64,000 nt of DNA, from assembly GCA_038042195.1 (NCBI GenBank), contig JBBTET010000007.1, forward strand, positions 1 to 64,000, written 5' to 3'. Source of the stretch: Planctomycetota bacterium. GTDB lineage: Bacteria; Planctomycetota; Phycisphaerae; UBA1845; UTPLA1. Under the pieces are notes generated by a model. It had not been told where the DNA came from. It ran no database searches and was given only the letters and a program-made list of their open reading frames with translations. This document shows positions 49,227 through 64,000 of this stretch, one piece after another (the stretch's first letter is position 1; each line of letters opens with the position of its first letter). The position numbers were made by a program, and so were the translations under genes.

Positions 49227-50552
49227 TCAAACGGTCGCCTTCTCGCCGTTGGGCAGGCCGACCTGAACAAACTTTTCGCTAACGTTCCAGCCTTCTTCGG
49301 AGCGGCGCTTGGCCACCGGGCGGCCATGTTCGTCCATTTCGTATCGCTCTTCCCACGTCACATTCCACGACATGCCCTGCGTGGTTCGATCGGTCGTTTT
49401 GTAAATCGCCGGGCAACCGTAACAGAAGTGGTCTTTCAGTCGCGGCTCGGAGTTGATCACCTCCGGGTTGTTCACCATTCGCCGGGCATCACGGTATTTT
49501 TCACTGTTCCAGATTTCGGCGAGGCTGGTTTCAAAGACGTTTCCGAAGTGCTTCGGATCGTCTTTCGCGGTGTATTGATGTCCGATGCGATAGGTACAGC
49601 AGGGGATGACGTCGCCGTTGTATTTGATGACCGTCGCATTGTGCGGCCAATAGCATTGCGGGAGGCCCTTGTTTTTGTGGGGGCCGATGACTTCGAGGAA
49701 GTTGGGATCGCGGTCGGTGTAGTTGCCGAGGTCGCCGAAGAAATCGGTGAACTGGTCGATGCCCATGTCGAGCAGCATCTTGCGGGCCGGCTCCACCTCG
49801 TCGAGGTTGTGCTGGAACTTGATGTACTGCACTTCGACCTTGGGATAAACCTGTCCGTATTCCTTGCGGAACTCGCAGATGCGTTTGAGATTGTTCAGGA
49901 CGCGGTCGATTCGCCCGCCGACGCGCGTCATTTCGTACTTCGCCTGTGACAGGCCATCGACGCACACCGTCAGATGCGTCAGGCCGCTCTTGACCATACG
50001 GCGGATGCGGGCGTCGGTGAGGGCGAAGCTGAAGTTGGTGCTGATGTGGACATTGAGGCCCGCGTCCTTGGCGATGGTGGACATCTCGTCGAGGTCGGGG
50101 TGGACAAGAGGATCACCGACATAATACAGCGACACGGCGGATGATCGCCCCCGAATCTGCTTGACGATTCCACGAAATTGCTCGACCGACATTCGATGTT
50201 GCGGGTGGAACTCCTGCTTTTCCAAAGCCGGGTCTCCATTTGGATCGGCGTGGACGCAGACGGTGCAACTGAGATTGCACATGGGGGAAATGTCGATCTT
50301 CACGGCGGAGGGGAAGGCGAGCATTTTCTCCGCCTTGAGGGCGTATTGCGTGGCCCCGACAGCGAGGTTGATGCCGCGGCGAAACGTCATGCGTTCCAAA
50401 AACCAGCCTTGGCGACGTTTGACACCCTGCACCAACATACGAAAGGATTCGCCGCTGGAAGCGAACGCGTCGAGATAGAATCGAGGGTCCAGGAAGCGCA
50501 ACGGGCTGGGCCGTGCGGCTCCCGTCGTGGACGAGGTGTTTTCAGCGATCAT
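49227..50552 (-). CDS. radical SAM protein with C-terminal Cys-rich (SPASM-like) region
   Basis: CNLSCTVCVH (CX3CX2C). C-terminal CCTYR...CYGCP cysteines. RBS GGGAAG 5 nt upstream of ATG 50552. Track ORF extends to 50642. Confidence 0.65.
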   Translation of the reverse strand: MIAENTSSTTGAARPSPLRFLDPRFYLDAFASSGESFRMLVQGVKRRQGWFLERMTFRRGINLAVGATQYALKAEKMLAFPSAVKIDISPMCNLSCTVCVHADPNGDPALEKQEFHPQHRMSVEQFRGIVKQIRGRSSAVSLYYVGDPLVHPDLDEMSTIAKDAGLNVHISTNFSFALTDARIRRMVKSGLTHLTVCVDGLSQAKYEMTRVGGRIDRVLNNLKRICEFRKEYGQVYPKVEVQYIKFQHNLDEVEPARKMLLDMGIDQFTDFFGDLGNYTDRDPNFLEVIGPHKNKGLPQCYWPHNATVIKYNGDVIPCCTYRIGHQYTAKDDPKHFGNVFETSLAEIWNSEKYRDARRMVNNPEVINSEPRLKDHFCYGCPAIYKTTDRTTQGMSWNVTWEERYEMDEHGRPVAKRRSEEGWNVSEKFVQVGLPNGEKATV

Positions 50553-50833
50553 GCTTCTTCCCTTTGATCGGGCATCCCGGTAGGTAGAGTACGCCCGTCC
50601 CCGTCCGTGGGTTCTATCTCTGCGTATCCGTACGGCAAACACTGTTGGCGAATCAGTTTATGATAACTTCGAGTCCGCCATTTGGCAAGGAAACGGGCCT
50701 TTGGCGACTTAGTGGAATCTCACTCGGACTATCGGTTTCGGGCCATGGCGGGCTTAGGATCGAGATGGATATCGGGGTACGGCGTTTCTCCGATAATCGT
50801 CGGGCGGATTGGGGTGGTGATTCTTCTAGTCGT

Positions 50834-51938: not shown

Positions 51939-54900
51939 TTAGGTGGAGCCATTTTTGTATTCACGGTGTGATGCAGTCTTCGGTGATAAGGAGGGCGGGC
52001 CGCCGTAGGACTTTGGCAAGCTGTTGACGATCTTGACGGTTTCGACGCTGACTCGGATGACTTGGCCTACGAGGCGGACGATGTATTCGGGGTCGTCTTC
52101 GCGGTTGGGGTCGCTGGTGATGCCGCTCTTTTTGTCGGTGTAGATTTGGTATTGGTCGATGACCCAGTCGAGGGCGGAGCGGTTGCCGAGGCGGTAGTCG
52201 AAGACTTCCTTGGGGATGCCATCAAGGACGAGGGAGTCGTTGACGATCAGGGATTTCTTATCCTTGGCGAGTTTCATTTTTTCGACGCGGTAGGCGAGGG
52301 GGACGCCGGGGGTTTCGATCCATTTGAGGGGCCATTCCTTCACGGATTCATAGTCGACGTGGAGTTTGGCGAGGGTTTTACCGGCGTCACGAAAGGCGTG
52401 GAAATCGTCCCGCGAAGAGGCAAGCGGGATTCGGGGGAGTTCGCGCTTGAGGCAGTCGGCGAACTTTTCGCGGTAGCCCTTGTGGTGGAGGAGGCCGTAG
52501 ACGTAGTGGAAGATATCCCACTTGGCGATCTTCTTGTCGTTGTAGTGGTCGCAGAAGAGTTGTAGCGCCCAGTCGGTGATGTTTTCGCGGCGGTTGGAGC
52601 CGTCTTCATTGTAAATGTAAAATGGAAAGCATTGGTGACCGTCAAGTGTGGCACACAGATGTAGGTCGGCGATGCCCTTGACTACAAGAGAACTGAATGA
52701 TTCGGATCGATGTGCTATGTCACTTATACAAATCGTTCGGTTTCCGTCTGCCGATTTCTTCGGCGGCTCGATCGCTGGAAAACCATAGACCTCCGCGTTT
52801 AATAGGCGGTCGAAATAGACCCATGTCGTCGTAAAGGGTCTATATGTTGCGGATCTAACAGCGTCCATCGAAAACGCTGCGTAGCGACCCCTCTTAAGAT
52901 CATTTTTTAGGTCGCGGTCCCAAGTGATCAAGTCATACTTGACAAAGTCATCCAGGTTCTCAGTTTGTGGACTCCGTTTCCAACGATCTACTTCAGCGTT
53001 GTAAGCTTCGATAAACCACTTAATTCTTTCGATTAGCGTACTTTGTGAGAAGTCGTAAACGACTGAATCGCGATGCGTTGCGATACCAAGAGAGTAATCT
53101 TTGAATACTGTCTTTGTATTATGAAACGAATCGGCTCGCTCGCTTTTTCCCGCCACTGATACAAGTAAGTCAAACTGCTTGGCGTGAGCCGGGACCATCC
53201 AAGAGTTCCGATTATCGGGTCGAAGCGTTTGCCATTTTACGTTTGTGATGGACGAGTGAGATGCAAGCCAAGATAGTTTTCGGTGTCTGGTTAGCAATTT
53301 GTCCGTTGCCGCGTATCGAAGATCGCATTGTTTTAGTGAAGAGCGTCGAACAGCAATTGTGATTCCAACTCCGACTTGTATTCCAAACACATTAAATTGT
53401 GTACCAGAGAGCGTCGGATTAAGTCGGACATCGCCTTCAAGGTCTATGTGAAAGATTTGTTGAAAGTCACGGGCAAAGTGCATCCGCATCCCGTCGAAAG
53501 CCGTGTTCTCGACAAAAGAGTTGTTTGACACAAAACAGATGATCCCGTCTCGATTTTTTAACCGATCACGAGCCCATCGAAAAAACTTTACATACGGGTC
53601 GTTGAGCTTGCTAACGCTTGTCGCCGCTGAGTCCTTTCCATAGGTAGCGCGTATTCGCTCGTCAATTGTCACGTATTTCCGATTCTTGTTTCGATCATTC
53701 TCGGCGAGTTGACCGACGTTGTACGGCGGGTTGCCGAGGATCACTGTGATAGGGGCTTTTTTCTGTCGTTCCACACGCTGGGTATTAGCTTCAGTCATAA
53801 AACCGAAGTGGCGCTGCTCTGATTCGGCAAGGTCGAGCGAATCCACGAAGCAAAGGCCCTCGAATGGCTCGTACGATCCGGTCTTGTCGAAATAGGCGTG
53901 CTCGATATTCAGGGCTGCGATGTAGTAGGGCAAGAGCATGACTTCGTTGGCAAAGAGCTGCTCCTTGTACACGCGGGACAGGGCGCGTTTGGGGATGCGA
54001 TTGATTAGGTTGACGATGAAGTTGCCTGTTCCCGTGCAGGGATCGAGGATTTGGACGTCCTTGTCGCCGAGCGTCTTGCCGAACTCTTTTTGCAGGACTT
54101 CCTCGACGCTGGCGCACATGAAGTCGACGATTTCCTGCGGGGTATAGACGATGCCGTGGGTGTCGGCCACTTTGACTGAATAGCCCTGAAAGAATCGTTC
54201 GTAGATCACGTTCAGGAAGTGCTGCTTTTCAGAGAAGCCGGTGATGGTTTTGGCGGCGGCCTCGATGGCGAGGTAGAAGCGGTCGAGCTGCTTCAGGTAG
54301 TCGTGACGGTTGAAGGACTTGCTGACGAGGGCGTCGATCACCTTCTCGACTTCGGCCGCGATAACGTTGCGGCGGGTGAAGTCCTGATTGTCGAAGATGG
54401 TGCGGATCAGCCGCTCGGTGAGGAGGTGCTGGACGAGCATTTCGTCGACGGCCTCGCGGCGGAGGTTGGGGTTGAGCGAGCTTTTGCACAACTCGAAGAA
54501 GCCCTCGAAGGCGGCTTTGAAGGGGGCGTTGGATTTGTGCGATTCGGCGATGAGATCGACCAGTCCCTTGGCGAGGTCGGGGACGCGCTGCTTGAACTCT
54601 CCGACGGCCTTTTCGAAGTTGTCGTGGGCCGGTTCGGTGTGTGAGAAGAAGGCGTTTAGGAGGTCGCAGAGGGGCTGGGGTTTGGTGAGGTCGTAGGTGC
54701 CTTCGTGTTTGCCGTTCTGATACAGCCGGGCCTCGCGGGTGTCCTCGAAGATGATGTTGGTGAGGGGGTAGCCTTTGGCAATTTTCTTTTTGATTTCGGC
54801 GGAGAGGTCGTCGGCGGTGTCTTTGGCTTCCCAGTGGCCGCGATCGATGTAGAAGTCGTCGCGGAAGGTTCCGTCGGGTCGGGTGCGGGTGGCGGAGAGG

Positions 54901-55133
54901 GGAAGGGATTCCACCGGGGCGTGCGTGCGAGAAGGGATTCTCGAACGAGGCGTGTCGGTGAGTTCGGGGATAAGGGTCCAGCCGGTTTTGCGGCCGCAGT
55001 GGTCGAGGAGGTTTTGGAATGCGGAGCGGAGGGCGGTTTCGTGTTTGACCTTTTGCCGGGCATACGCGGCGAGGGCGGCGTAGTAATCCTTGATGGGTTT
55101 GGCGGCGGGTTTGATCTCCAACTTTCCGGCCAT
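51939..55133 (-). CDS. MmeI-family Type IIL/IIG single-chain restriction-modification enzyme (N-terminal PD-ExK-like nuclease + N6-adenine methyltransferase + target recognition domain)
   Basis: N-terminus RSAFQNLLDHCGRKTGWTLIPE...DDFYIDRGHWEAKD (MmeI-type D...ExK). Methyltransferase motif I ILDPCTGTGNFIV and motif IV GNPPYNVG. No Walker A/helicase, so not Type ISP. Start set at ATG 55133 (MAGKLEI); track ORF extends to 55196. Confidence 0.7.
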   Translation of the reverse strand: MAGKLEIKPAAKPIKDYYAALAAYARQKVKHETALRSAFQNLLDHCGRKTGWTLIPELTDTPRSRIPSRTHAPVESLPLSATRTRPDGTFRDDFYIDRGHWEAKDTADDLSAEIKKKIAKGYPLTNIIFEDTREARLYQNGKHEGTYDLTKPQPLCDLLNAFFSHTEPAHDNFEKAVGEFKQRVPDLAKGLVDLIAESHKSNAPFKAAFEGFFELCKSSLNPNLRREAVDEMLVQHLLTERLIRTIFDNQDFTRRNVIAAEVEKVIDALVSKSFNRHDYLKQLDRFYLAIEAAAKTITGFSEKQHFLNVIYERFFQGYSVKVADTHGIVYTPQEIVDFMCASVEEVLQKEFGKTLGDKDVQILDPCTGTGNFIVNLINRIPKRALSRVYKEQLFANEVMLLPYYIAALNIEHAYFDKTGSYEPFEGLCFVDSLDLAESEQRHFGFMTEANTQRVERQKKAPITVILGNPPYNVGQLAENDRNKNRKYVTIDERIRATYGKDSAATSVSKLNDPYVKFFRWARDRLKNRDGIICFVSNNSFVENTAFDGMRMHFARDFQQIFHIDLEGDVRLNPTLSGTQFNVFGIQVGVGITIAVRRSSLKQCDLRYAATDKLLTRHRKLSWLASHSSITNVKWQTLRPDNRNSWMVPAHAKQFDLLVSVAGKSERADSFHNTKTVFKDYSLGIATHRDSVVYDFSQSTLIERIKWFIEAYNAEVDRWKRSPQTENLDDFVKYDLITWDRDLKNDLKRGRYAAFSMDAVRSATYRPFTTTWVYFDRLLNAEVYGFPAIEPPKKSADGNRTICISDIAHRSESFSSLVVKGIADLHLCATLDGHQCFPFYIYNEDGSNRRENITDWALQLFCDHYNDKKIAKWDIFHYVYGLLHHKGYREKFADCLKRELPRIPLASSRDDFHAFRDAGKTLAKLHVDYESVKEWPLKWIETPGVPLAYRVEKMKLAKDKKSLIVNDSLVLDGIPKEVFDYRLGNRSALDWVIDQYQIYTDKKSGITSDPNREDDPEYIVRLVGQVIRVSVETVKIVNSLPKSYGGPPSLSPKTASHREYKNGST

Positions 55134-55291
55134 ATGGGTTGGAAGGCTAAAGAGTGTGGGGAGGGTGGTCAAATGGAGAGCGCGCTTGCATGGCATGCAA
55201 GAGGTCGGGGGATGTCGAGAGAGGTGGTGAGGTTCTTTGTGTCACCCGCCAAACGGCAAGCCGTGGGCAGGGGGCGTTTCATTTAGGGTGC

Positions 55292-55350: not shown

Positions 55351-56823
55351 TCAAATCGTGCCGGCCACCTGGCGGAAGTGGTAGCCGGTGATGGCCATGG
55401 CCATGGCTTCGCTGAAGGCGCGGGGGTGGGAGACGAGGGCGCGGGTGGTGAACTTCCAGAACTCCATGCGGCCGCGGGTGCGGATGCCGAGGGTCCAGAG
55501 GGATTGGAAGAAGGCGCGCAGGTCGGATTGGGTGAGGCGAACCTTCGGCCCGGATGGGCGGTAGTCGCGCAGGAAGGTCAGCACGCGCTGGTAATACTCG
55601 CGCGGCGTGTAGATGCGCTTGACCAGATCGCGATAGCCTTCGATGAGCGTTTCACGGTCGAGCTTGGGGATGAAGTTCAGCACGGCGTCGAGGTTGTTAC
55701 CGGTGCTGTGGGCGAGGAGGCGGCCTTCTTCGCGCAGGCGGTGGAAGAGGCGCGTTTCGGGGAGGGCGGTGAGCAGGCCGACCATGGCGGTGACGATGCC
55801 GGTCTCTTCGATGAAGCGGCGCTGGCGCTCGAAGATGCTGGGGCCGTCGCTGTCGAAGCCGACGATGAAGCCGCCCATGACTTCGATGCCGGCCTTGTGA
55901 ATCAGGCGCACCGACGCGGCCATGTCGCGCGAGGAGTTCTGCACCTTGGCGCATTCAGTGAGGCTCTCGTGCGAGGGGCTTTCTATACCGACGAAGACCT
56001 TCTTGAAGCCGGCCTGCACCATGAGGTCGAGCAGCTCGGCATCGTCGGCGAGATTCAGCGAGGCCTCGGTGGTGAATGGCAGCGACACCTTGCGATTGCG
56101 CCGCCAGGAGACCAGCTCGCGCAGGAAGGCCTTCACCTTTACCTTGTTGCCGATGAAATTGTCATCCACGATGAAGACCGACTCATCCCATCCGGTGGCG
56201 AGGAGGGCTTCGAGTTCGCCGATCATTTGCTGCGGCGTCTTCACACGGGGGATGCGGCCGTTCATGACGATGATGTCGCAGAATTCGCAGTTGAAGGGGC
56301 AGCCTCGGGAGAATTGCAGCGGCATGGTGACATATTGGCTTTTTTGCAGGAGATCCCAGCGGGGGATCGGCGTATTGGTGACGTCGGGGCGGACGGCACT
56401 ACGGTAGTGCGGCTTCACGTCGCCACGGACCATGTCGGCGGCGACGCCGGCCATGAGGTCTTCGGCTTCGCCGAGGACGAAGTGCTTGATCTCGGGGAAT
56501 CGTTCGTGGCCGGTGGTGAAGAGGGGGCCGCCGGCGATGACGGGTTTATTTCGGGCGATGCATCGGGCGACGATCTGTTTCGCCGAGTCGGCGTGGATGA
56601 TCATTGCGGAGATGAAGACGTAATCGGCCCAGTCGAGGTCGGCGTCGCGCAGGGAGCGGACGTTGAGGTCGACGAGTCGCTGGTTCCAGCTTTTCGGGAG
56701 CATGGCGGCGACGGTGAGGAGGCCGAGCGGTGGGTAGGCGGATTTCTTGGCGACGAAAGGGAGTACGTGGCTGAAGCTCCAGAAGGTGGGCGGGTCGGAA
56801 GGCCAGACGAGCAGGATGTTCAT
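55351..56823 (-). CDS. B12-binding domain radical SAM protein (class B, DUF4070-type C-terminus)
   Basis: N-terminal cobalamin-binding Rossmann-like region. CPFNCEFCD radical SAM cluster motif. Confidence 0.7.
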   Translation of the reverse strand: MNILLVWPSDPPTFWSFSHVLPFVAKKSAYPPLGLLTVAAMLPKSWNQRLVDLNVRSLRDADLDWADYVFISAMIIHADSAKQIVARCIARNKPVIAGGPLFTTGHERFPEIKHFVLGEAEDLMAGVAADMVRGDVKPHYRSAVRPDVTNTPIPRWDLLQKSQYVTMPLQFSRGCPFNCEFCDIIVMNGRIPRVKTPQQMIGELEALLATGWDESVFIVDDNFIGNKVKVKAFLRELVSWRRNRKVSLPFTTEASLNLADDAELLDLMVQAGFKKVFVGIESPSHESLTECAKVQNSSRDMAASVRLIHKAGIEVMGGFIVGFDSDGPSIFERQRRFIEETGIVTAMVGLLTALPETRLFHRLREEGRLLAHSTGNNLDAVLNFIPKLDRETLIEGYRDLVKRIYTPREYYQRVLTFLRDYRPSGPKVRLTQSDLRAFFQSLWTLGIRTRGRMEFWKFTTRALVSHPRAFSEAMAMAITGYHFRQVAGTI

Positions 56824-56953: not shown

Positions 56954-57907
56954 TCAATTCACGTTTGGGGCTGCGTCGGCAGACGGTGATTCCGACTTGC
57001 GATGACTCCGATAGGACTCGCCGACCGGTTCGACGTGTATCAGGACGTCCATGACGCTGGGGTTCGCGCGACGTATGGCGTCCTTTACATCGTGAGCGAT
57101 ATCGTGGGCGGCACGGACCGTCAATTCGGGGTCCACTTCGAGATGCAAGTCAATCAAGAAAGTCATACCGCTCTTTCGACAGAAGACTTTCTCCACGCCG
57201 CGCACCCCAGGGACACTGCGGGCGGCTGTTTGCACATCTTTATCTAGAATTGTCTGTCGTACGTCCATCAGCTCGGCGAGCGGAGCGCGAATCAGCAAGA
57301 TGGCATTCACCATGATCACTCCAGAAGCAAAGAGTGCGGCCCAGTCGTCGGCCGGTTCGTATCCTTTGCCGCCAATCAAAGCGATGGTGATTCCGATTGC
57401 CGCGGCAGTGGAGGTCAGGGCATCGCTTCGATGATGCCACGCATCGAGAAGGACCGCACCGCTCTTGATGTCTTTGGCAACGTGATGCACTTTTCGAAAA
57501 AGCGTCTCCTTGACAACGATCACCCCGATGAGCACCCAAAGCGTGAATGCCGCCGGCAAGTGGTGCGGTTTAAGAATCTCACGAATGGCCTGTATGGCGA
57601 TTCCGATGCTCGCAGTGATGAGCATCAACGCCACGACGACGCCGGCCAGCGATTCTGCTTTTCCACGGCCGTAGGGGTGACGTTCATCGGCCGGCGCGGC
57701 GGCGATACGGAGGCCACTCCAGACGATCATGGAGGAGAGGATGTCCGCCGTGGATTCCACGGCATCGGCGATCAGTGCGTAGGAATTCCCAAGTACGCCA
57801 GCCAGAAGTTTGATCATGGCGAGAGCAACATTGGTCACGACGCCGAGCAGACTGATGTGCTGCCCCCGACGATGTGCATCTTGTGAAAGCGATTCAAAAG
57901 AGTTCAT
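56954..57907 (-). CDS. cation diffusion facilitator (CDF) family divalent metal efflux transporter
   Basis: Six TM helices with HxxxD metal sites (IADAVESTADI, LDAWHHRSDALTS) and a cytoplasmic C-terminal domain. Start moved to ATG 57907. The track ORF 56954..58354 has an implausible Pro/Arg-rich 150-aa extension. Confidence 0.75.
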   Translation of the reverse strand: MNSFESLSQDAHRRGQHISLLGVVTNVALAMIKLLAGVLGNSYALIADAVESTADILSSMIVWSGLRIAAAPADERHPYGRGKAESLAGVVVALMLITASIGIAIQAIREILKPHHLPAAFTLWVLIGVIVVKETLFRKVHHVAKDIKSGAVLLDAWHHRSDALTSTAAAIGITIALIGGKGYEPADDWAALFASGVIMVNAILLIRAPLAELMDVRQTILDKDVQTAARSVPGVRGVEKVFCRKSGMTFLIDLHLEVDPELTVRAAHDIAHDVKDAIRRANPSVMDVLIHVEPVGESYRSHRKSESPSADAAPNVN

Positions 57908-57942
57908 ATGATGGACTGTAAGCAGAAGGCGGCTGTGCCGCA

Positions 57943-59715
57943 TTACGGTGGGCCGTAGGTGAAATTCGTGTGGTTGACGCCGTGGCAGGTCAGGGTGCAA
58001 CTGCCGGTGAAGAGGCCCGTGTCCACATAGAAGCGTTGGCCGCCGACGATGGAGAGGTCGAAGTTGACGAGGTGGTCGTGATTGGCGCGGCTGCCGCTCA
58101 CGCCATGGGCGGCGTGGCAGGCGGAGCAGGGGGTGCGGGCCTGGACGACGTGGCGATTGTGGAAGTTGAAGCTTTGGTCGCCGAGGATGGAGTTGCGATC
58201 GTGGCATTTGTAGCAGAGGGCGTAGGACTGCGGGGACTCGACGGTGAAGTCGGCGGTGTCGTAGCGGTTGGCGAGGAGGAAGTCGAAGCGTGAGCCGTGG
58301 GGGCCGTTCGCGGAGCCGCCGCCGAGTTGGCGGGCGTCGGGATTGTTGTGGCAATCCTGGCAGCCGATGATCGGGCGCGTTCGGACTTCGGGGAGGAGGC
58401 TGGGCGTTTCGTTACTTAGGAATGTTGGGAAGGTGATCGGATGTGCTGACGCGGCCGTGGGGAGAAGTTGGCGACGGATGTTGCCGAAGCCCTCGATCTG
58501 GCGGCTGATGCGCGGGCGGATGAGCACGGGGTTGTCGGCGTGGCAGCGGAAGCAGACTTCGTAATAGAAGCGGGCCTCGTCGACTGGTGCGCCGACGAGA
58601 TTCACGCCGCGTGCGTTGCTCATTGCGCCGGGGAGGATCGGCCCGCGACGGTCGGCGAGCAGGAGCGCGTTCGAGAGCGGGCTGGGGCGGACGGAGTGTG
58701 GGTTGTGGCAATCGACGCACTCGACGTGCGGCGGCATGAGCAGCGGGTTTTCCTTCGGGTCGTGTAGGTCGGCGAGCCTGTTGAAGGTGTGACCGCTGCG
58801 GCTGTTGAGTGTGTCCTGAATATTTATTCCGCCGATTCCGTCGTGGCAGGTGATGCAGAGATCGGAGGGGCGGTCGCGGAGGAGTCGCTCGCGATGGGGG
58901 GCGTTGTGGACGACGTGACAGGAGGAGCAGGCGTTTTCCGCCATCGAGCGAAAGGGAAGTTTTATTCCGTTGGTCGATGTGACCTGCACGGAGCGCGGGC
59001 TCTGGGCGTGGGAACTGACTTCCCAGCCTTCCATTTTGTGGCAGGTGTTGCAGAGGGCGGATTGTCGGTCGGTGATGCGCAGGAAGTTGCCCACTTCATT
59101 GTTGTGTGGATCGTGGCAGGCGGTGCATTCGAGTTGGCCTCGCGGGCCGAGCTTGATGCGGCTGTCGACGAGGTCGGGCGAACGGATTTGGCTGTCACGG
59201 TTGGAGAGCTGTCGGTCGTAGCGGAAGCCGATGGGGTGATCGTCGGAGAGGTCGTTGGTGAGATTCGACGGGCCGGTCGGCATGAAGGGCTGGTTCATGG
59301 GGATGGGGTCGGTGGGCGGGCGATTGAGCACGAGGCCGAGGGCGATGCTGCCGTCGTGGCAGGAGAGACACATCTTGCTGGGGCCGCCGGGCTGATCGAT
59401 TCGGGCATCGGTGGTGCTTGAATTGTAGATGCGGTAGTAAGTCGTGGGGTTGTAGCGATTCCAGAGGGGGGCCTGTGGGCTGGCGTTGTGCGGGGCGTGG
59501 CAGAAGATGCAGACTTCGCCTTCGTTGAGGGCTTTCACCGTGCCGGGGCCGAAGGTGGAGAGGTCGTGTTTGGAATTGACGACGGACTCGTCGGCGCGGA
59601 GGGGGGCGATGATGACAAGAGCGAATGCGCAGATGACGCGACCCCACCCTAGCCCTCTCCTTATTATGGGGAGGGGACCAGAAGCGACAGACGTGGCGAA
59701 AGTGCGTGTCGTCAC
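57943..59715 (-). CDS. secreted multiheme c-type cytochrome (11 CxxCH plus one CxxxCH)
   Basis: Signal peptide. CxxCH motifs counted by eye: CIFCH, CLSCH, CTACH, CNTCH, CSSCH, CITCH, CVDCH, CFRCH, CQDCH, CYKCH, CSACH, plus CTLTCH. Confidence 0.8.
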   Translation of the reverse strand: MTTRTFATSVASGPLPIIRRGLGWGRVICAFALVIIAPLRADESVVNSKHDLSTFGPGTVKALNEGEVCIFCHAPHNASPQAPLWNRYNPTTYYRIYNSSTTDARIDQPGGPSKMCLSCHDGSIALGLVLNRPPTDPIPMNQPFMPTGPSNLTNDLSDDHPIGFRYDRQLSNRDSQIRSPDLVDSRIKLGPRGQLECTACHDPHNNEVGNFLRITDRQSALCNTCHKMEGWEVSSHAQSPRSVQVTSTNGIKLPFRSMAENACSSCHVVHNAPHRERLLRDRPSDLCITCHDGIGGINIQDTLNSRSGHTFNRLADLHDPKENPLLMPPHVECVDCHNPHSVRPSPLSNALLLADRRGPILPGAMSNARGVNLVGAPVDEARFYYEVCFRCHADNPVLIRPRISRQIEGFGNIRRQLLPTAASAHPITFPTFLSNETPSLLPEVRTRPIIGCQDCHNNPDARQLGGGSANGPHGSRFDFLLANRYDTADFTVESPQSYALCYKCHDRNSILGDQSFNFHNRHVVQARTPCSACHAAHGVSGSRANHDHLVNFDLSIVGGQRFYVDTGLFTGSCTLTCHGVNHTNFTYGPP

Positions 59716-60788
59716 GGCTGCGTCTCCTTTAGATACTGAAACACCTGCACGCGGCGATTGTAGGTGTCGGCGATCCAGATGCGATCCTGGTCGTCGATGC
59801 TGATGCCGGCGGGGAGGTAGAACTCGCCGGGGCCGCGGCCTTCTTGTCCGAGGGCCATGAGCAGGCGGCCCTGGTCGTCGAAGAGTTGGATGTTCTCGAA
59901 TTGGTTGTCGAGGACGTAAATGTTGCCTTGTGAGTCGGTGGCAACATCGCGCGGGAGGGCGAAGTCGCCGGCGGCGTCGCCCTTATGGCCGAAGGAGAGC
60001 AGCGGCAATCCGTCGGAGCGTAGAATTTGGATGCGGAAGTTCATGGAGTCGGCGATGGCAAAGCCTCGATCCAGGAGCCGGGCAATGCCGGTGGGGAAGT
60101 TGATTTCGCCGGCTGCGGCACCTCGCGCGCCTATCGTTCGAATCTTGGTACCCGTAGCGTCGAATACTTTGCAGTTGTGCGACCCACTGTCAATGACAAA
60201 CAACTCATCGGTGGAGGCGTCGTGGGTGATTGAGGCGGGGCGTTTTAGTTGGCCCTCACCGATGGTGCGTTGATAGACTCCGTCCATGTTGAAGAGGAAG
60301 ATGGCGGCGCGTTTGCTGTCGACGACGGCGATGGAGTCCTTTGCGAAGGCGAGGTCGATGGGCCATTCCAGTCGCTTGGAGCCGGTGTCACGAATCGTGG
60401 CGAATGAGCGCGACGCAAGGTCCATGCGATACACGGCTTGATTCTGGCCGTCGGCGACGAAGACGAGGTCGCCTTTGGCGATGACGGACATCGGCGTGGA
60501 GAAACCGATCTTGGGCTTGGGGCCGGTGAAGAGTTCGCCGAGGGATTGGAGGCCTTTCGCGGGTGCGTGGAGGCTGTCTTCGCCGGTGAGTTGGCCGATG
60601 TAGCGGATGCGGGGTTGGTCGGGGGATTTGGGCCAGACGATTGGGGGATTTTGGTCGGTGAAGACGGGTTTGAGTGGGCCTTGGCAGCCGAGATTTGCAA
60701 CGATGGCAATCGTGAGGAACACGAGGGTTGCGCGTAGTCGAAGCGCTTGGCAAGCCGCGCGGCTAAACGTGAGAAGGTCCGTGGTCAT
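59712..60788 (-). CDS. NHL-repeat (6-bladed beta-propeller) lipoprotein
   Basis: Lipobox ANLGCQG. Repeated NHL-like blades (…GIARLLDRGFAIADSMNFRIQIL…, …GNIYVLDNQFENIQLF…, …RIWIADTYNRRVQVF…). 4-bp overlaps with both neighbours. Confidence 0.7.
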   Translation of the reverse strand: MTTDLLTFSRAACQALRLRATLVFLTIAIVANLGCQGPLKPVFTDQNPPIVWPKSPDQPRIRYIGQLTGEDSLHAPAKGLQSLGELFTGPKPKIGFSTPMSVIAKGDLVFVADGQNQAVYRMDLASRSFATIRDTGSKRLEWPIDLAFAKDSIAVVDSKRAAIFLFNMDGVYQRTIGEGQLKRPASITHDASTDELFVIDSGSHNCKVFDATGTKIRTIGARGAAAGEINFPTGIARLLDRGFAIADSMNFRIQILRSDGLPLLSFGHKGDAAGDFALPRDVATDSQGNIYVLDNQFENIQLFDDQGRLLMALGQEGRGPGEFYLPAGISIDDQDRIWIADTYNRRVQVFQYLKETQP

Positions 60789-62884
60789 GATCGTGCCCTC
60801 CCAATGATCGGGATCTCGCGGCGCACTCGGATCCAGACGCCGAAGGAATCATCCTCCGACGTGGGCAGGTGCAGCGTCTCGTATTCTATTTCGAGCGAGA
60901 CAGTGAACAATCCGATTCGGTAGGCGAGGTTGGTGCGGAGGTCGACGCCGTTGGTTCGGCCGAAGAAGGAGTCGTCCTCATAGCGGTAGGCGGCGTTGGC
61001 GTTGGCCTCGATGTTGCGACCGAGCGTGTAACGATAGTTCATGCCGAGGTCGAGGAGGACGGTGTCGCGGGGTTCGAGGCTGTGCAGGCCGTCGAAGGCG
61101 AATTGCGACAGGGTGCCACGGCCGGTGACTAGTTGCATTGCATCTTGCGCGAGGACGGCATCTGCGTTGAAGTGGACGGCCTGGTAGGGATCGATGTTGT
61201 CGTCGTTGGTTTCGTATTCCATGCCGGCGGACCACCGCTTCTTTTTGTAGGTCATGCCGATGCGGTGGCGATTTACGTCGCGGTCGGAGTTGTAGAGGAG
61301 GAACCGTTGGCGATTGACGTCTTCCTCCTGTGCGGTCCCGGCGTAGTAGGGTGTCCAACCGTTCTTAAAGTCCTGTTGCACGCGTACATCGACACGGTCG
61401 CGTCGAATCGCGAAGTCGTTGAACACACGATAGACGTAGCTGACCATCACGGTCTGGCGATTCAGGATTTGGCCGGTGAAGACGCGGTGAATCGACAGGT
61501 ACTTGCCGATGGGGAGCAGGGTGTAATCGCGGCCGGGCAGGAAGATGCGCGATCGCGTGAGGTCGGTGACGACGACGGTGAAGAGATTCACGTCGCTGTG
61601 CGAGAGCATGGCGGGCAGCGGGTCGATGAAGGTGACGGATTCACCGGTGACGATGCCGTCGCGGTCGCCGTCGTTGGTGCTGTAGCCGGTGTGGTTGTAG
61701 GAGAGGTTGCTGGTGAATCGGCCGAGGTCGTTGTCCTTGCTGAAGGCGAAGTTGGCGAGGCCGCCCCATTCCTTGCTGTCGGCGTTTTCGTCGACGTCCT
61801 GGGTCAATGCGTAGAGATTGAAGTTGCTGGTAAGGGCGCTGGCGAGGGTGTGGGTGAGGCCGACGTCGCCGCGGCCTGTTTTGCTTTGGAGTTGCTGGAA
61901 GTTTTCCTTGAGCCACTGGACGCCGTAAGTGGTGAAGAGGTCGTCGGTGTGTTGCAGGTGGAGGCGCGGGGCGAACTCGGCCACGTCGCGTGCCCAGTCG
62001 CCTTTCTCATCCTCGTAGCGGGCGATGGTTTCGAGGCGATTGCGGCCCTGGTCACCGAAGGTGATGGTGTCGAGCAGCGAGAAGTAGTTGTGGCGATTGT
62101 TGAAGGTGTCGCGTGTTCCGGAGTATTGCTCGTCGCGGTCCATGTACTCGTAGTTGAGCTTCATGGAGTGGTTCGCGGTGGGTTGCCACGTGGCTTCATA
62201 GCGAAAGGCGTCTTCGGCGCGTTGCTCGCTGTCGTTGTAGAAGAAGGAGCGGCTGCCATCGAGGTCGTCGTAGAGGTGCTCGATGGTGAGCGACATCGGG
62301 AGGGTGGAGTCGTTGTAGTTGATCTGCGCGCCGTAGCGCTCGCGGGTGCGGTCGAGGCTGGGGAGGAATGGGCGGGCGAGTCGGTCATTGAGTTTCGACG
62401 CGAAGGCCGAGGCGGAGATTTTTCCGACGGGGAGGGCTTGCAGGCGCAGGTCGTATTCCAGTACCTGGCCGTGTGGATCGTTTTCCTGTCCGCCCAGACC
62501 GGGCGTGTCTTCCTGGAATCGCTCCTGCGAGAAACCGAAGCGGGCCATGGCGTCGTATTTGAGTATGCGTTCGTCGATGAGGCTGCCGCTGGAGTTGAGG
62601 CCGAGCGTTTCCTGGAAGATGCGGGATTCGTTGCGCTGTCGGTAGGCGGGCGGACCGAGCCAACTGGTCTGTTCGCTGCGCACGTGGCGTCGAGAGAGTT
62701 CGGCATCAAAGCCAAGGTCGGCGGAGAGTTCGTCGATGCTCATGAAGTTAAGGCGACGTGGCGCTGCATCGACGACGGCGGGTTGCGTGGTGGTGGCGGG
62801 TGATGCATCGTCCGCCCATGCGACAGTTGCCGCGCCGAAAATCAGCAGCGTTGCATGGAGCAGGTGGCGGCGTATATGGGCCAT
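60785..62884 (-). CDS. putative outer-membrane beta-barrel protein (porin-like), first gene of cytochrome operon
   Basis: Signal peptide MAHIRRHLLHATLLIFGAATVAWADD. Long stretch of alternating polar/aromatic strands rich in Y/N/D/T/R typical of large OM barrels. Start moved to 62884. Confidence 0.5.
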   Translation of the reverse strand: MAHIRRHLLHATLLIFGAATVAWADDASPATTTQPAVVDAAPRRLNFMSIDELSADLGFDAELSRRHVRSEQTSWLGPPAYRQRNESRIFQETLGLNSSGSLIDERILKYDAMARFGFSQERFQEDTPGLGGQENDPHGQVLEYDLRLQALPVGKISASAFASKLNDRLARPFLPSLDRTRERYGAQINYNDSTLPMSLTIEHLYDDLDGSRSFFYNDSEQRAEDAFRYEATWQPTANHSMKLNYEYMDRDEQYSGTRDTFNNRHNYFSLLDTITFGDQGRNRLETIARYEDEKGDWARDVAEFAPRLHLQHTDDLFTTYGVQWLKENFQQLQSKTGRGDVGLTHTLASALTSNFNLYALTQDVDENADSKEWGGLANFAFSKDNDLGRFTSNLSYNHTGYSTNDGDRDGIVTGESVTFIDPLPAMLSHSDVNLFTVVVTDLTRSRIFLPGRDYTLLPIGKYLSIHRVFTGQILNRQTVMVSYVYRVFNDFAIRRDRVDVRVQQDFKNGWTPYYAGTAQEEDVNRQRFLLYNSDRDVNRHRIGMTYKKKRWSAGMEYETNDDNIDPYQAVHFNADAVLAQDAMQLVTGRGTLSQFAFDGLHSLEPRDTVLLDLGMNYRYTLGRNIEANANAAYRYEDDSFFGRTNGVDLRTNLAYRIGLFTVSLEIEYETLHLPTSEDDSFGVWIRVRREIPIIGRARS

Positions 62885-63024
62885 CGGGCAACAAAACTTC
62901 CGCACACCGCCCGACCCCAAGGGCGGCCCATCGCGCACTCACCGCGCCGAGCGCGCTTCAGCGTGCCGCGTTTTCGCATCTTGATGGACACGTGCGCGCG
63001 GCGTATAGTCTGTTCCCGAACACG

Positions 63025-63741
63025 ATGAGATCATACTGCAAAAGCTCGAACCGTATACGGCGTTTCGCTACACTGAGCACCGCCGTTTGGTGCGTTTTTC
63101 TCGGGCTCTCGATCTTCGTCATCTCCATTACATCGGCATCCTGCGTGGAGGCGCAGCGCACCGGACGCGCGACCACCCTGCCTGCGACGGAAGCTAAGTG
63201 GGACGTGCCGCCGGAATTGCGCGATTCATTCGCCGGTGGCCTAATCGGCAGCAAGCACGACTTCAGCCGCGATCGGCACAACCCACGCGATTTGTGCTTG
63301 ACCTGTCACACGCCGCACATCACGACGGCTCGTGCCCCGCTCCTGGATCGCGCGCCGCGACCAGCGCAGGCGGCGTCGCTGCGGCAGGCGTTTGGGGATG
63401 AGCTGAATAGTTCGAGCATTTTGTGCCTGAGCTGTCACGATGGCGTGACCGCGCCGGATGTCTATACGTCGAGCCATTCACTGATGTGGACGGGGCAACT
63501 GGGCAGTCAGCAAGTCGGCTCACGGCCGTTGACCAGCCATCCGATTGGGGCGAAATATCCGCTGGTGGATTCCAAGTACCGCACGGCGGCGGAGGTGGAA
63601 GCCGATGGGCGTGTTCGGCTGCCGAGCGGGCGCGTGCAGTGCATTTCGTGCCACGACCCGCACAATACGGAGCGGCATCCTTCGATGCTGGTGCGGTCGA
63701 ATCAGCGGAGTAGTTTGTGTTTGGCGTGTCATCGGTTGTGA
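63025..63741 (+). CDS. periplasmic tetraheme c-type cytochrome, divergently transcribed
   Basis: Signal peptide. CLTCH, CLSCH, CISCH, CLACH. Start moved to ATG 63025 inside track ORF 62758..63741. Confidence 0.7.
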   Translation: MRSYCKSSNRIRRFATLSTAVWCVFLGLSIFVISITSASCVEAQRTGRATTLPATEAKWDVPPELRDSFAGGLIGSKHDFSRDRHNPRDLCLTCHTPHITTARAPLLDRAPRPAQAASLRQAFGDELNSSSILCLSCHDGVTAPDVYTSSHSLMWTGQLGSQQVGSRPLTSHPIGAKYPLVDSKYRTAAEVEADGRVRLPSGRVQCISCHDPHNTERHPSMLVRSNQRSSLCLACHRL

Positions 63742-63800
63742 GGGGAAAAAAGGCACGAAGGCACTGAGGCACGAGGGCACATAGGGGCAGCGGATTATTT

Positions 63801-63882
63801 GTAGGGTCCGCTGTGCGGACCGGAACGTGAAGAATGATATTCAAGCCGAGTCATTTAAAATGGTCCGCACAGCGGACCCTAC
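63801..63882. repeat. 21-bp perfect inverted repeat with 40-nt AT-richer spacer downstream of tetraheme cytochrome gene
   Basis: GTAGGGTCCGCTGTGCGGACC ...40 nt... GGTCCGCACAGCGGACCCTAC. Confidence 0.7.
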
Positions 63883-64000
63883 AGAGTCGCGCTGTCCTAA
63901 TCGTTAGTCCGCTGCTTTTTCTAGTTGGTTGCGGCGAATCCAACTTACAGCAGGTTCACGAGCGATTTCCGGAGCGGCTTTATCCGCGTGCGCCGCAGGC

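Follow-up and report, generated by a model that had tools for sequence, protein, structure and literature searches.

The first 64,000 nucleotides of contig JBBTET010000007.1 (GCA_038042195.1; here called the window), from a Planctomycetota bacterium (Phycisphaerae; UBA1845; UTPLA1), carry at one end a gene cassette that probably represents the Phycisphaerae version of the OmcE/Uet-type outer-membrane cytochrome module, which would carry respiratory electrons through the outer membrane between the cell and a partner outside. The cassette encodes a large outer-membrane beta-barrel, an NHL-repeat propeller lipoprotein, and a 12-heme c-type cytochrome, with a divergent OmcE-like tetraheme cytochrome and a second NHL lipoprotein. 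Most of what is known about extracellular electron transfer comes from Geobacter and Shewanella; in the Planctomycetota, to our knowledge, it has been shown only for anammox bacteria. The cassette was found in at least 69 species-level genomes of Phycisphaerae and other Planctomycetota, and the barrel has about 1,800 clusters at 50% identity, which suggests that a large uncultured group, common in sediments, groundwater, and wastewater, is able to pass electrons to, or take them from, minerals, humics, or partner cells. The parts list is already known from the omcE and uet clusters. What appears new, going by the sequences, is a barrel family of its own, the fusion of an OmcE-like module to an octaheme cytochrome, and a tetraheme with a ninth invariant His. 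A literature search found no paper describing this Phycisphaerae cassette. A lake metagenome survey lists FeGenie "DFE variant" and novel multiheme cytochrome hits in Phycisphaerae and describes no cluster (bioRxiv 10.1101/2022.03.26.485925).

Two divergent operons encode the cassette

Three genes of the cassette lie on the minus strand. The first, the barrel gene (60785..62884), encodes 699 aa from its ATG and begins with a Sec signal peptide (MAHIRRHLLHATLLIFGAATVAWA before DD). The second (59712..60788) encodes a 358-aa NHL-repeat, six-bladed beta-propeller lipoprotein that matches Pfam NHL and DUF5128 and has a lipobox-like sequence (...VANLGC). The third (57943..59715) encodes a 590-aa c-type cytochrome with a Sec signal peptide, 11 CXXCH motifs, and one CTLTCH motif, that is, 12 heme sites. 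This cytochrome consists of an OmcE-like tetraheme head (residues 32-227, positions 59035..59622, delimited by phmmer against PDB) and an octaheme body (residues 228-590, positions 57946..59034, recognized by BLASTP) with a CX3CH motif at its end. The barrel and NHL genes overlap by 4 nt (ATGA, 60785-60788), as do the NHL and cytochrome genes (GTGA, 59712-59715). The cytochrome stop codon has one base in common (TAATG, 57943) with the first ATG of a gene for a cation diffusion facilitator (CDF) family divalent-cation exporter (56954..57943, minus strand, 329 aa; alternative ATG at 57907). On the plus strand, the 238-aa tetraheme cytochrome with four CXXCH motifs (63025..63741) is followed by the 5' end of the second NHL lipoprotein gene (63834..64000; MIFKPS...LLFLVGC/GES...), which is cut by the window edge.

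An original prediction, made from the sequence of the window alone, had described a coupled four-gene order of barrel, NHL lipoprotein, cytochrome, and CDF transporter with a divergent tetraheme. All of these open reading frames were found where it placed them, with overlaps of 4, 4, and 1 nt, and its estimate of 11 to 12 hemes for the 590-aa protein was borne out by the 12 sites counted here. Its gene inventory was correct for the genes that it listed and incomplete in one respect, since it missed the second NHL lipoprotein gene at 63834, which is cut by the window edge and for that reason does not show in an open reading frame listing.

The two operons are separated by a 140-bp intergenic region (62885..63024), which is presumed to be a control region shared by both. 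Consensus promoter and terminator scans at the cassette gave matches at chance level only, the single sigma-70-like match being on the plus strand at 62981-63009. Therefore, co-transcription is deduced from the gene overlaps alone. The likely start of the tetraheme gene is the ATG at 63025, not 62758. A public contig, L077, is 100% identical to window positions 59470-64000 and extends the second NHL frame to at least 299 codons with NHL repeats. The public gene calls on this contig start the barrel at a later codon (652 aa), by which its signal peptide is lost, and the tetraheme at an upstream start (312 aa). The 699-aa and 238-aa starts fit the signal peptides better than these calls.

The cassette is conserved among the Phycisphaerae

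The conservation of the cassette was scanned using one genome per species, which gave 69 distinct loci. The order of barrel, NHL, and 12-heme genes was kept in essentially all of the loci long enough to show it, and the divergent tetraheme was present in 57. That this order recurs beside a divergent tetraheme in the 69 loci shows that the arrangement is not accidental. After the tetraheme, about 49 loci have a lipoprotein in which an NHL propeller is fused to an octaheme cytochrome, and a further cytochrome with 7 to 8 heme sites was found in 41. Genes for ResB/CcsA lie near the cassette in some related loci, and one locus has a Rieske/cytochrome b complex with fused hemes. In the relative L001, the cassette is followed by glycosyltransferase and methyltransferase genes.

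More distant members have the same kind of cluster. Three such loci, L075, L076, and L078, were found, and the gene order was kept in L075 and L076. In L078, the barrel gene is followed by a 12-heme gene (39% identity over the full length, E 1.7e-125), together with a divergent NHL lipoprotein gene and two triheme c7 genes.

The limits of the cassette are best seen in the loci L003 and L004, where the cassette proteins are about 80 to 90% identical to those of the window. The similarity is bounded by the stop codons of the cytochrome and tetraheme genes, beyond which the flanks are unrelated. Because the similarity to these loci ends exactly at the cytochrome stop, the cassette is a conserved unit and the CDF gene is a local neighbor. 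Furthermore, the genomic contexts differ among the relatives, and the cassette is therefore either mobile or situated in a rearranged region.

Both cytochromes contain OmcE-like modules

The 12-heme protein matches Pfam Paired_CXXCH_1 (1.2e-27), and 12 heme sites are present in 58 of its 61 orthologues. A phmmer search of its head against PDB identified the OmcE filament of Geobacter sulfurreducens (7TFS; E 2.3e-31), with the alignment covering residues 13-231 of the 232-residue chain, and the OmcE filament of Desulfuromonas soudanensis (9YUQ; E 1.4e-28). Through the OmcE sequence of this PDB alignment, the omcE locus of G. sulfurreducens was retrieved. The octaheme body of the 12-heme protein is similar to the 370-aa multiheme cytochrome of that locus (MHC370; BLASTP E 8e-11), with residues 284-578 aligned to residues 89-356 and the terminal CX3CH motifs aligned to each other. 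A good example of the same two parts as separate genes is found in L075, a metagenome-assembled genome (MAG) labelled Brocadiia. In this locus (L075:11126-12864), two overlapping genes encode a 226-aa OmcE-like tetraheme, which matches the 12-heme head (E 7e-41), and a 359-aa octaheme, c359, which matches the octaheme body (E 1.5e-31). Because the protein is split into two genes in L075, the 12-heme cytochrome of the window is a gene fusion of an OmcE-like module and an octaheme cytochrome.

The free tetraheme is also related to OmcE. A profile built from 45 orthologues (A2) matched the two filament structures over the full length (9YUQ, E 2.3e-18; 7TFS, E 8.1e-15). When 120 OmcE homologues, 45 tetrahemes, and 59 heads of 12-heme proteins were aligned together, eight conserved His columns were seen, corresponding to four proximal and four distal heme ligands. 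All eight are filled in every OmcE homologue and every tetraheme, and each is filled in at least 93% of the heads. The two modules of the window differ, however, in what they have beyond these columns. The 12-heme head has exactly the eight His columns of OmcE, and, again as in OmcE, the His of its KHDL motif is nine residues past the predicted cleavage site. In the free tetraheme, the invariant His are nine in total; the ninth (H151 in the window protein) was present in 100% of the Phycisphaerae tetrahemes but in none of the 120 OmcE homologues and in none of the heads. The tetraheme also has a linker of about 35 to 40 residues between the signal peptide and its KHDF motif. In a pattern survey, a lipobox-like Cys preceded this linker in about 40% of the relatives. 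The corresponding sequence of the window protein (...ITSASC) is lipobox-like by eye and was not scored by the survey pattern.

The barrel founds its own family

An AlphaFold2 model of the 699-aa protein, made with an alignment of 53 relatives, was confident and all-beta (mean pLDDT, 87.4), which agrees with the earlier proposal that this protein is a barrel and not a soluble or other non-barrel protein. The model shows the signal peptide and a disordered linker followed by about 28 to 30 long antiparallel strands, and its best match among solved structures is MtrB. The fold is thus that of a large barrel resembling MtrB. At the sequence level, there were zero family matches of the 699-aa protein in Pfam and NCBIfam, and a profile of the barrel found nothing among PDB sequences at E values up to 10.

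A profile search of 1.84 billion representative proteins found 1,827 barrel clusters at E values up to 0.001, 313 of them at E values up to 1e-30. Among the 98 close clusters, all with an organism name are from Planctomycetota/Phycisphaerae MAGs, and they are annotated as hypothetical. Among 20 distant clusters looked up, two had an organism label (Brocadiia and Planctomycetes). Judged from these searches, the protein founds its own Planctomycetota family of outer-membrane-type barrels, which neither Pfam nor NCBIfam covers with a model. Conservation within the family is highest in an insert of ~60 residues between two strands (residues 419-477 of the barrel), which may be a plug or may dock a cytochrome or the NHL protein. 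Its motifs, TF.DPLP and GRDY, are recognizable in relatives at about 20 to 25% identity (P0294, P0309, and P0322).

Two of the distant relatives, P0294 and P0322, carry a pentaheme lipoprotein (motif YRVLSFFFDGVPDP) fused to the N terminus of the barrel. In L075 (7411-7998) and L076 (7069-7875), the pentaheme is a separate gene directly upstream, ending from a few bases to about 125 nt before the barrel gene. The pentaheme lipoprotein is absent from the barrel family of the window. The pentaheme-barrel fusion is independent evidence that the barrel family works with cytochromes.

Two NHL lipoproteins accompany the barrel

The first NHL protein matches Pfam NHL (1.7e-22) and DUF5128 (1.3e-17), and its lipobox Cys is present in the homologues. 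It is 30% identical over 315 aa (E 6e-49) to the product of the 361-aa NHL gene in the omcE cluster of G. sulfurreducens. In related loci, an NHL-octaheme fusion comes after the tetraheme, and the second NHL gene is 46 to 59% identical to the propeller portion of this protein. The fusion, of about 660 to 700 aa with 8 CXXCH motifs, is the usual orthologue of the second NHL gene there.

The natural fusions found in this group, namely, OmcE head to octaheme, NHL to octaheme, and pentaheme to barrel, indicate which parts touch each other. They yield testable predictions of how the outer membrane anchors nanowires and surface cytochromes.

Comparison with known electron transfer clusters

The closest known counterpart is the omcE cluster of the Desulfuromonadia. 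The smallest omcE clusters always contain two multiheme cytochromes, two beta-propeller lipoproteins, OmcE, and a large beta-barrel (bioRxiv 10.1101/2025.10.22.684050). The Geobacter-type loci retrieved here agree with this published definition. The G. sulfurreducens locus has ResB, CcsA, the 370-aa and a 330-aa multiheme cytochrome, the 361-aa NHL protein, OmcE, a 752-aa protein with no Pfam match, and glycosyltransferases, and two further genomes have the same pattern, one of them with a second NHL gene. The window shares with this cluster an OmcE-like tetraheme with four CXXCH motifs and the same eight His columns, a homologous NHL propeller lipoprotein within a set of two propeller genes, an octaheme body homologous to MHC370 including the terminal CX3CH, and a barrel of about 700 to 750 aa without a Pfam family. 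System II cytochrome maturation genes and glycosyltransferases also lie near the cassette in some of its relatives. Of the two further cytochromes in the definition, the MHC370 counterpart is fused in the window, and the second octaheme is fused to NHL in most relatives and would lie beyond the window.

There are also clear differences. The window barrel has no detectable sequence relation to the Geobacter barrel. One OmcE-like module of the window is fused to an octaheme to form the 12-heme protein, and the free tetraheme has the ninth invariant His, a long N-terminal tether, and often a lipobox. The second NHL protein is fused to an octaheme in most relatives of the window. Finally, the gene order differs, the operons are divergent, and the phylum is Planctomycetota, which is not among the five phyla in which omcE-like clusters have been reported (bioRxiv 10.1101/2025.10.22.684050). 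The cassette adds a sixth phylum to those with OmcE-type clusters and connects such clusters with the Uet type. The original prediction had called the composition of the locus unusual and the system possibly undescribed, but the composition is a described one. A propeller, a large barrel, an OmcE-like tetraheme, and multiheme cytochromes are the signature of omcE and uet clusters, and three of the parts are homologous to proteins of the Geobacter omcE cluster.

The uet cluster of "Ca. Tenderia electrophaga" consists of the tetraheme UetA, the peptidyl-prolyl isomerase (PPIase) UetB, the predicted 28-strand barrel UetC, the triheme c7 proteins UetD/E/G, and the cupredoxin UetF, together with the NHL proteins UetH/I, an 11-CXXCH cytochrome, UetJ, and adjacent CcsAB, and it was proposed to serve electron uptake in aerobic autotrophs (bioRxiv 10.1101/2022.05.06.490989). 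The Gallionella versions of UetJ are counted with 11 to 12 motifs and are described as doubled-CXXCH proteins (PMC10734462). Compared by composition only, the window resembles the uet clusters of Tenderia and some Gallionella in having a tetraheme, a barrel, two NHL genes, and a cytochrome with 11 CXXCH motifs plus a CX3CH. It differs from them in that a scan of the genes around the cassette found no PPIase, cupredoxin, or triheme c7 gene, and CXXCH-rich open reading frames number only two in the 64 kb. The distant relative L078 does have triheme c7 genes, as with UetD/E/G, and by composition it bridges the layouts of the window and of Uet.

Like the porin-cytochrome conduits MtrCAB, MtoAB, and PioAB, and like the Geobacter Pcc complexes (OmaB-OmbB-OmcB and Ext), the cassette has a large barrel translationally coupled to multiheme cytochromes. 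However, its barrel has about 28 to 30 strands compared to 26, and NHL propeller lipoproteins and OmcE-like modules are not Mtr or Pcc parts. The MtrAB/PioAB-like logic suggested by the original prediction therefore stands insofar as the barrel is linked, and in distant relatives fused, to multiheme cytochromes, but the barrel is not of the MtrB/PioB sequence family. The cytochromes, likewise, are well below the cutoff of the DmsE/MtrA family (TIGR03508; 46.5 bits for the 12-heme protein and 40 bits for the tetraheme, compared to a cutoff of 192.2). Two gene clusters of Desulfovibrio ferrophilus, DFE_0448-0451 and DFE_0461-0465, can be likened to the cassette by description, as multiheme cytochromes clustered with NHL beta-propellers, but these were reported without an apparent porin (PMC9769857).

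Proposed mechanism and alternative explanations

Because the barrel is tightly linked to multiheme cytochromes, extracellular electron transfer of the porin-cytochrome type is the best reading of the locus. From the parts described above we infer the topology, the contacts between partners, the direction in which electrons flow, and the substrate. All cassette proteins would be exported by Sec, and the cytochromes would gain their hemes in the periplasm. The barrel of about 28 to 30 strands would be seated in the outer membrane, with the NHL propeller lipoproteins bound to it and aiding the insertion, holding, or export of the cytochromes. In the literature consulted, the propeller lipoproteins and barrels that omcE and omcS clusters encode have been proposed to play this same role. 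The 12-heme protein would form a continuous heme chain through or on the barrel, with its octaheme body toward periplasmic donors. Since the head keeps the eight-His pattern of the polymerizing OmcE subunit, it may present an open OmcE-type interface. The separate OmcE-like tetraheme, which in this clade would be held by a lipobox and a tether of 35 to 40 residues, may dock on this interface at the cell surface and act as the terminal unit of electron exchange.

Several points weigh against this assignment. The functions of all cassette members are predicted from sequence and fold, and the relatives of the cassette are all uncultured MAGs. MtrB/PioB models, against which the original prediction had asked for comparison, were matched neither by the window barrel nor by any of its 53 relatives, and a Pfam scan of the family gave weak, generic barrel or porin hits. 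The barrel of the Geobacter omcE cluster fared no better: hhalign with the barrel profile A1 and hhalign against a two-sequence Geobacter-type profile gave no link (probabilities, 0.3 to 1.4%), and two wider barrel profiles scored near zero against the Geobacter-type barrel in hmmsearch. Because the barrel has no sequence similarity to either the Geobacter barrel or MtrB/PioB, its role rests on its fold, its gene linkage, and the fusions. An AlphaFold2 model of the 12-heme protein (59 sequences) had a mean pLDDT of 46.7 and was unusable for judging its shape or its fit to the pore. Lastly, the 64-kb window has no gene for a quinol dehydrogenase of the inner membrane or for a periplasmic carrier.

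Among the alternatives, the one nearest to our interpretation is a true nanowire assembly system, in which the barrel and the NHL proteins form a platform for secretion and anchoring and the tetraheme, or the 12-heme protein via its head, polymerizes into micrometer-long filaments like those of Geobacter or Desulfuromonas. The full-length homology to OmcE, with all eight heme-ligating His columns kept, and the accessory set of propeller lipoproteins and a large barrel are what such a system would have, and the glycosyltransferase and methyltransferase genes after the cassette in L001 are also found in many omcE clusters. However, with its ninth His, which is invariant and absent from the OmcE homologues, and its linker of about 40 residues, which often comes with a lipobox, the free tetraheme looks more like a tethered or self-satisfied unit than like the subunit of an open-ended polymer. 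Moreover, the polymer-type eight-His module is covalently fused to an octaheme, and no filament has been reported from the Planctomycetota, a phylum outside those listed for omcE-like clusters. Filament formation is therefore unlikely, though it deserves to be kept in view. These same features bring up a more doubtful idea, a finite, capped OmcE-type wire. The 12-heme protein would be its base, with the octaheme stalk in or on the barrel and the head open, and the tetraheme would be a cap or stopper that satisfies the interfacial heme through its ninth His. The D. soudanensis preprint predicts a filament stopper with nine His and four hemes and found no candidate inside omcE operons (bioRxiv 10.1101/2025.10.22.684050). 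The free tetraheme, with nine His and four hemes, has this predicted signature, which makes the capped wire a live, if speculative, possibility. If true, the cassette would encode a natural initiator/terminator pair of the kind that the nanowire field has called missing.

Two other explanations do without electron transfer to the outside or give it a different purpose, and both appear far less probable. The locus could encode a periplasmic or envelope redox enzyme complex with no extracellular electron transfer, its soluble substrate entering via the barrel and the NHL protein being an enzyme or a scaffold. NHL propellers can indeed be enzymes, and the multiheme cytochrome shows weak similarity to NrfB-like proteins (Pfam E 2e-5, below the cutoff) and to an octaheme nitrite reductase (8rv0, E 0.031). 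But it most resembles the extracellular OmcE filament subunit and the surface cytochrome OcwA (6i5b, E 4.8e-5), and cytochrome-barrel fusions occur in the relatives. A catalytic multiheme enzyme was rejected on the grounds that a catalytic heme motif such as CXXCK was not found and that the invariant His are numerous enough for bis-His ligation of every heme site. An enzyme complex is thus quite improbable. The original prediction had raised a system that oxidizes, reduces, or detoxifies metals and has the CDF exporter as one of its parts, that is, a metal-handling operon whose cytochromes oxidize or reduce Fe or Mn while the CDF protein exports the metal. The first candidate ATG of the CDF gene overlaps the cytochrome stop codon by one base, and the second is 36 nt further on. 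The top-scoring models of the transporter are of Fe/Mn type, and export of Fe(II) or Mn(II) would be sensible for a cell that reduces metal oxides. Yet the CDF gene was absent from all 71 related loci, including L003 and L004, where synteny stops at the cytochrome stop codon, and its scores with the specific equivalog models are far below their cutoffs. A weak hairpin, described below, also lies between the cytochrome stop and the second CDF start candidate. Because of this absence, a metal detoxification or oxidation operon is without comparative support, and we regard it as very improbable. CDF as a part of the system was rejected. The OmcE/Uet-type module remains our preferred interpretation of the locus.

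The CDF exporter and other neighboring genes

The CDF gene itself encodes a genuine CDF transporter. It scores 212 bits with TIGR01297 (cutoff, 82.35) and matches Cation_efflux (PF01545; 8.9e-41) and ZT_dimer (PF16916; 9.7e-22). The best equivalog models are MamM, MamB, FieF, and MntE, all with scores below their own cutoffs. In this genome, the gene may be co-transcribed with the cassette. A G+C-rich hairpin of 5 pairs with a weak T-rich tail is found on the minus strand at 57929-57941, between the cytochrome stop and the second CDF start (57907). Read-through into the CDF gene could be attenuated by this hairpin, which does not exceed chance level in the scan.

The next gene downstream of the CDF gene (55351..56823, minus strand) encodes a B12-binding radical SAM protein with DUF4070, and a radical SAM/SPASM protein is encoded further on (49227-50642, minus strand). 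Neither radical SAM gene was found in the related loci (0 of 71 for the B12-binding one), and no link of either to the cassette was found. Between these two genes is a 1,085-aa open reading frame (51939-55196, minus strand) that resembles Type ISP restriction-modification enzymes. Its recognizable domains are those for coupling, N6-methylation, and, at the C terminus, specificity, whereas neither nuclease nor helicase domains were matched. It lies in a patch of low G+C content (0.47 to 0.48, compared to about 0.60 around it). Because the G+C content of this patch is lower than that of its surroundings, horizontal acquisition of the Type ISP-like gene is suggested.

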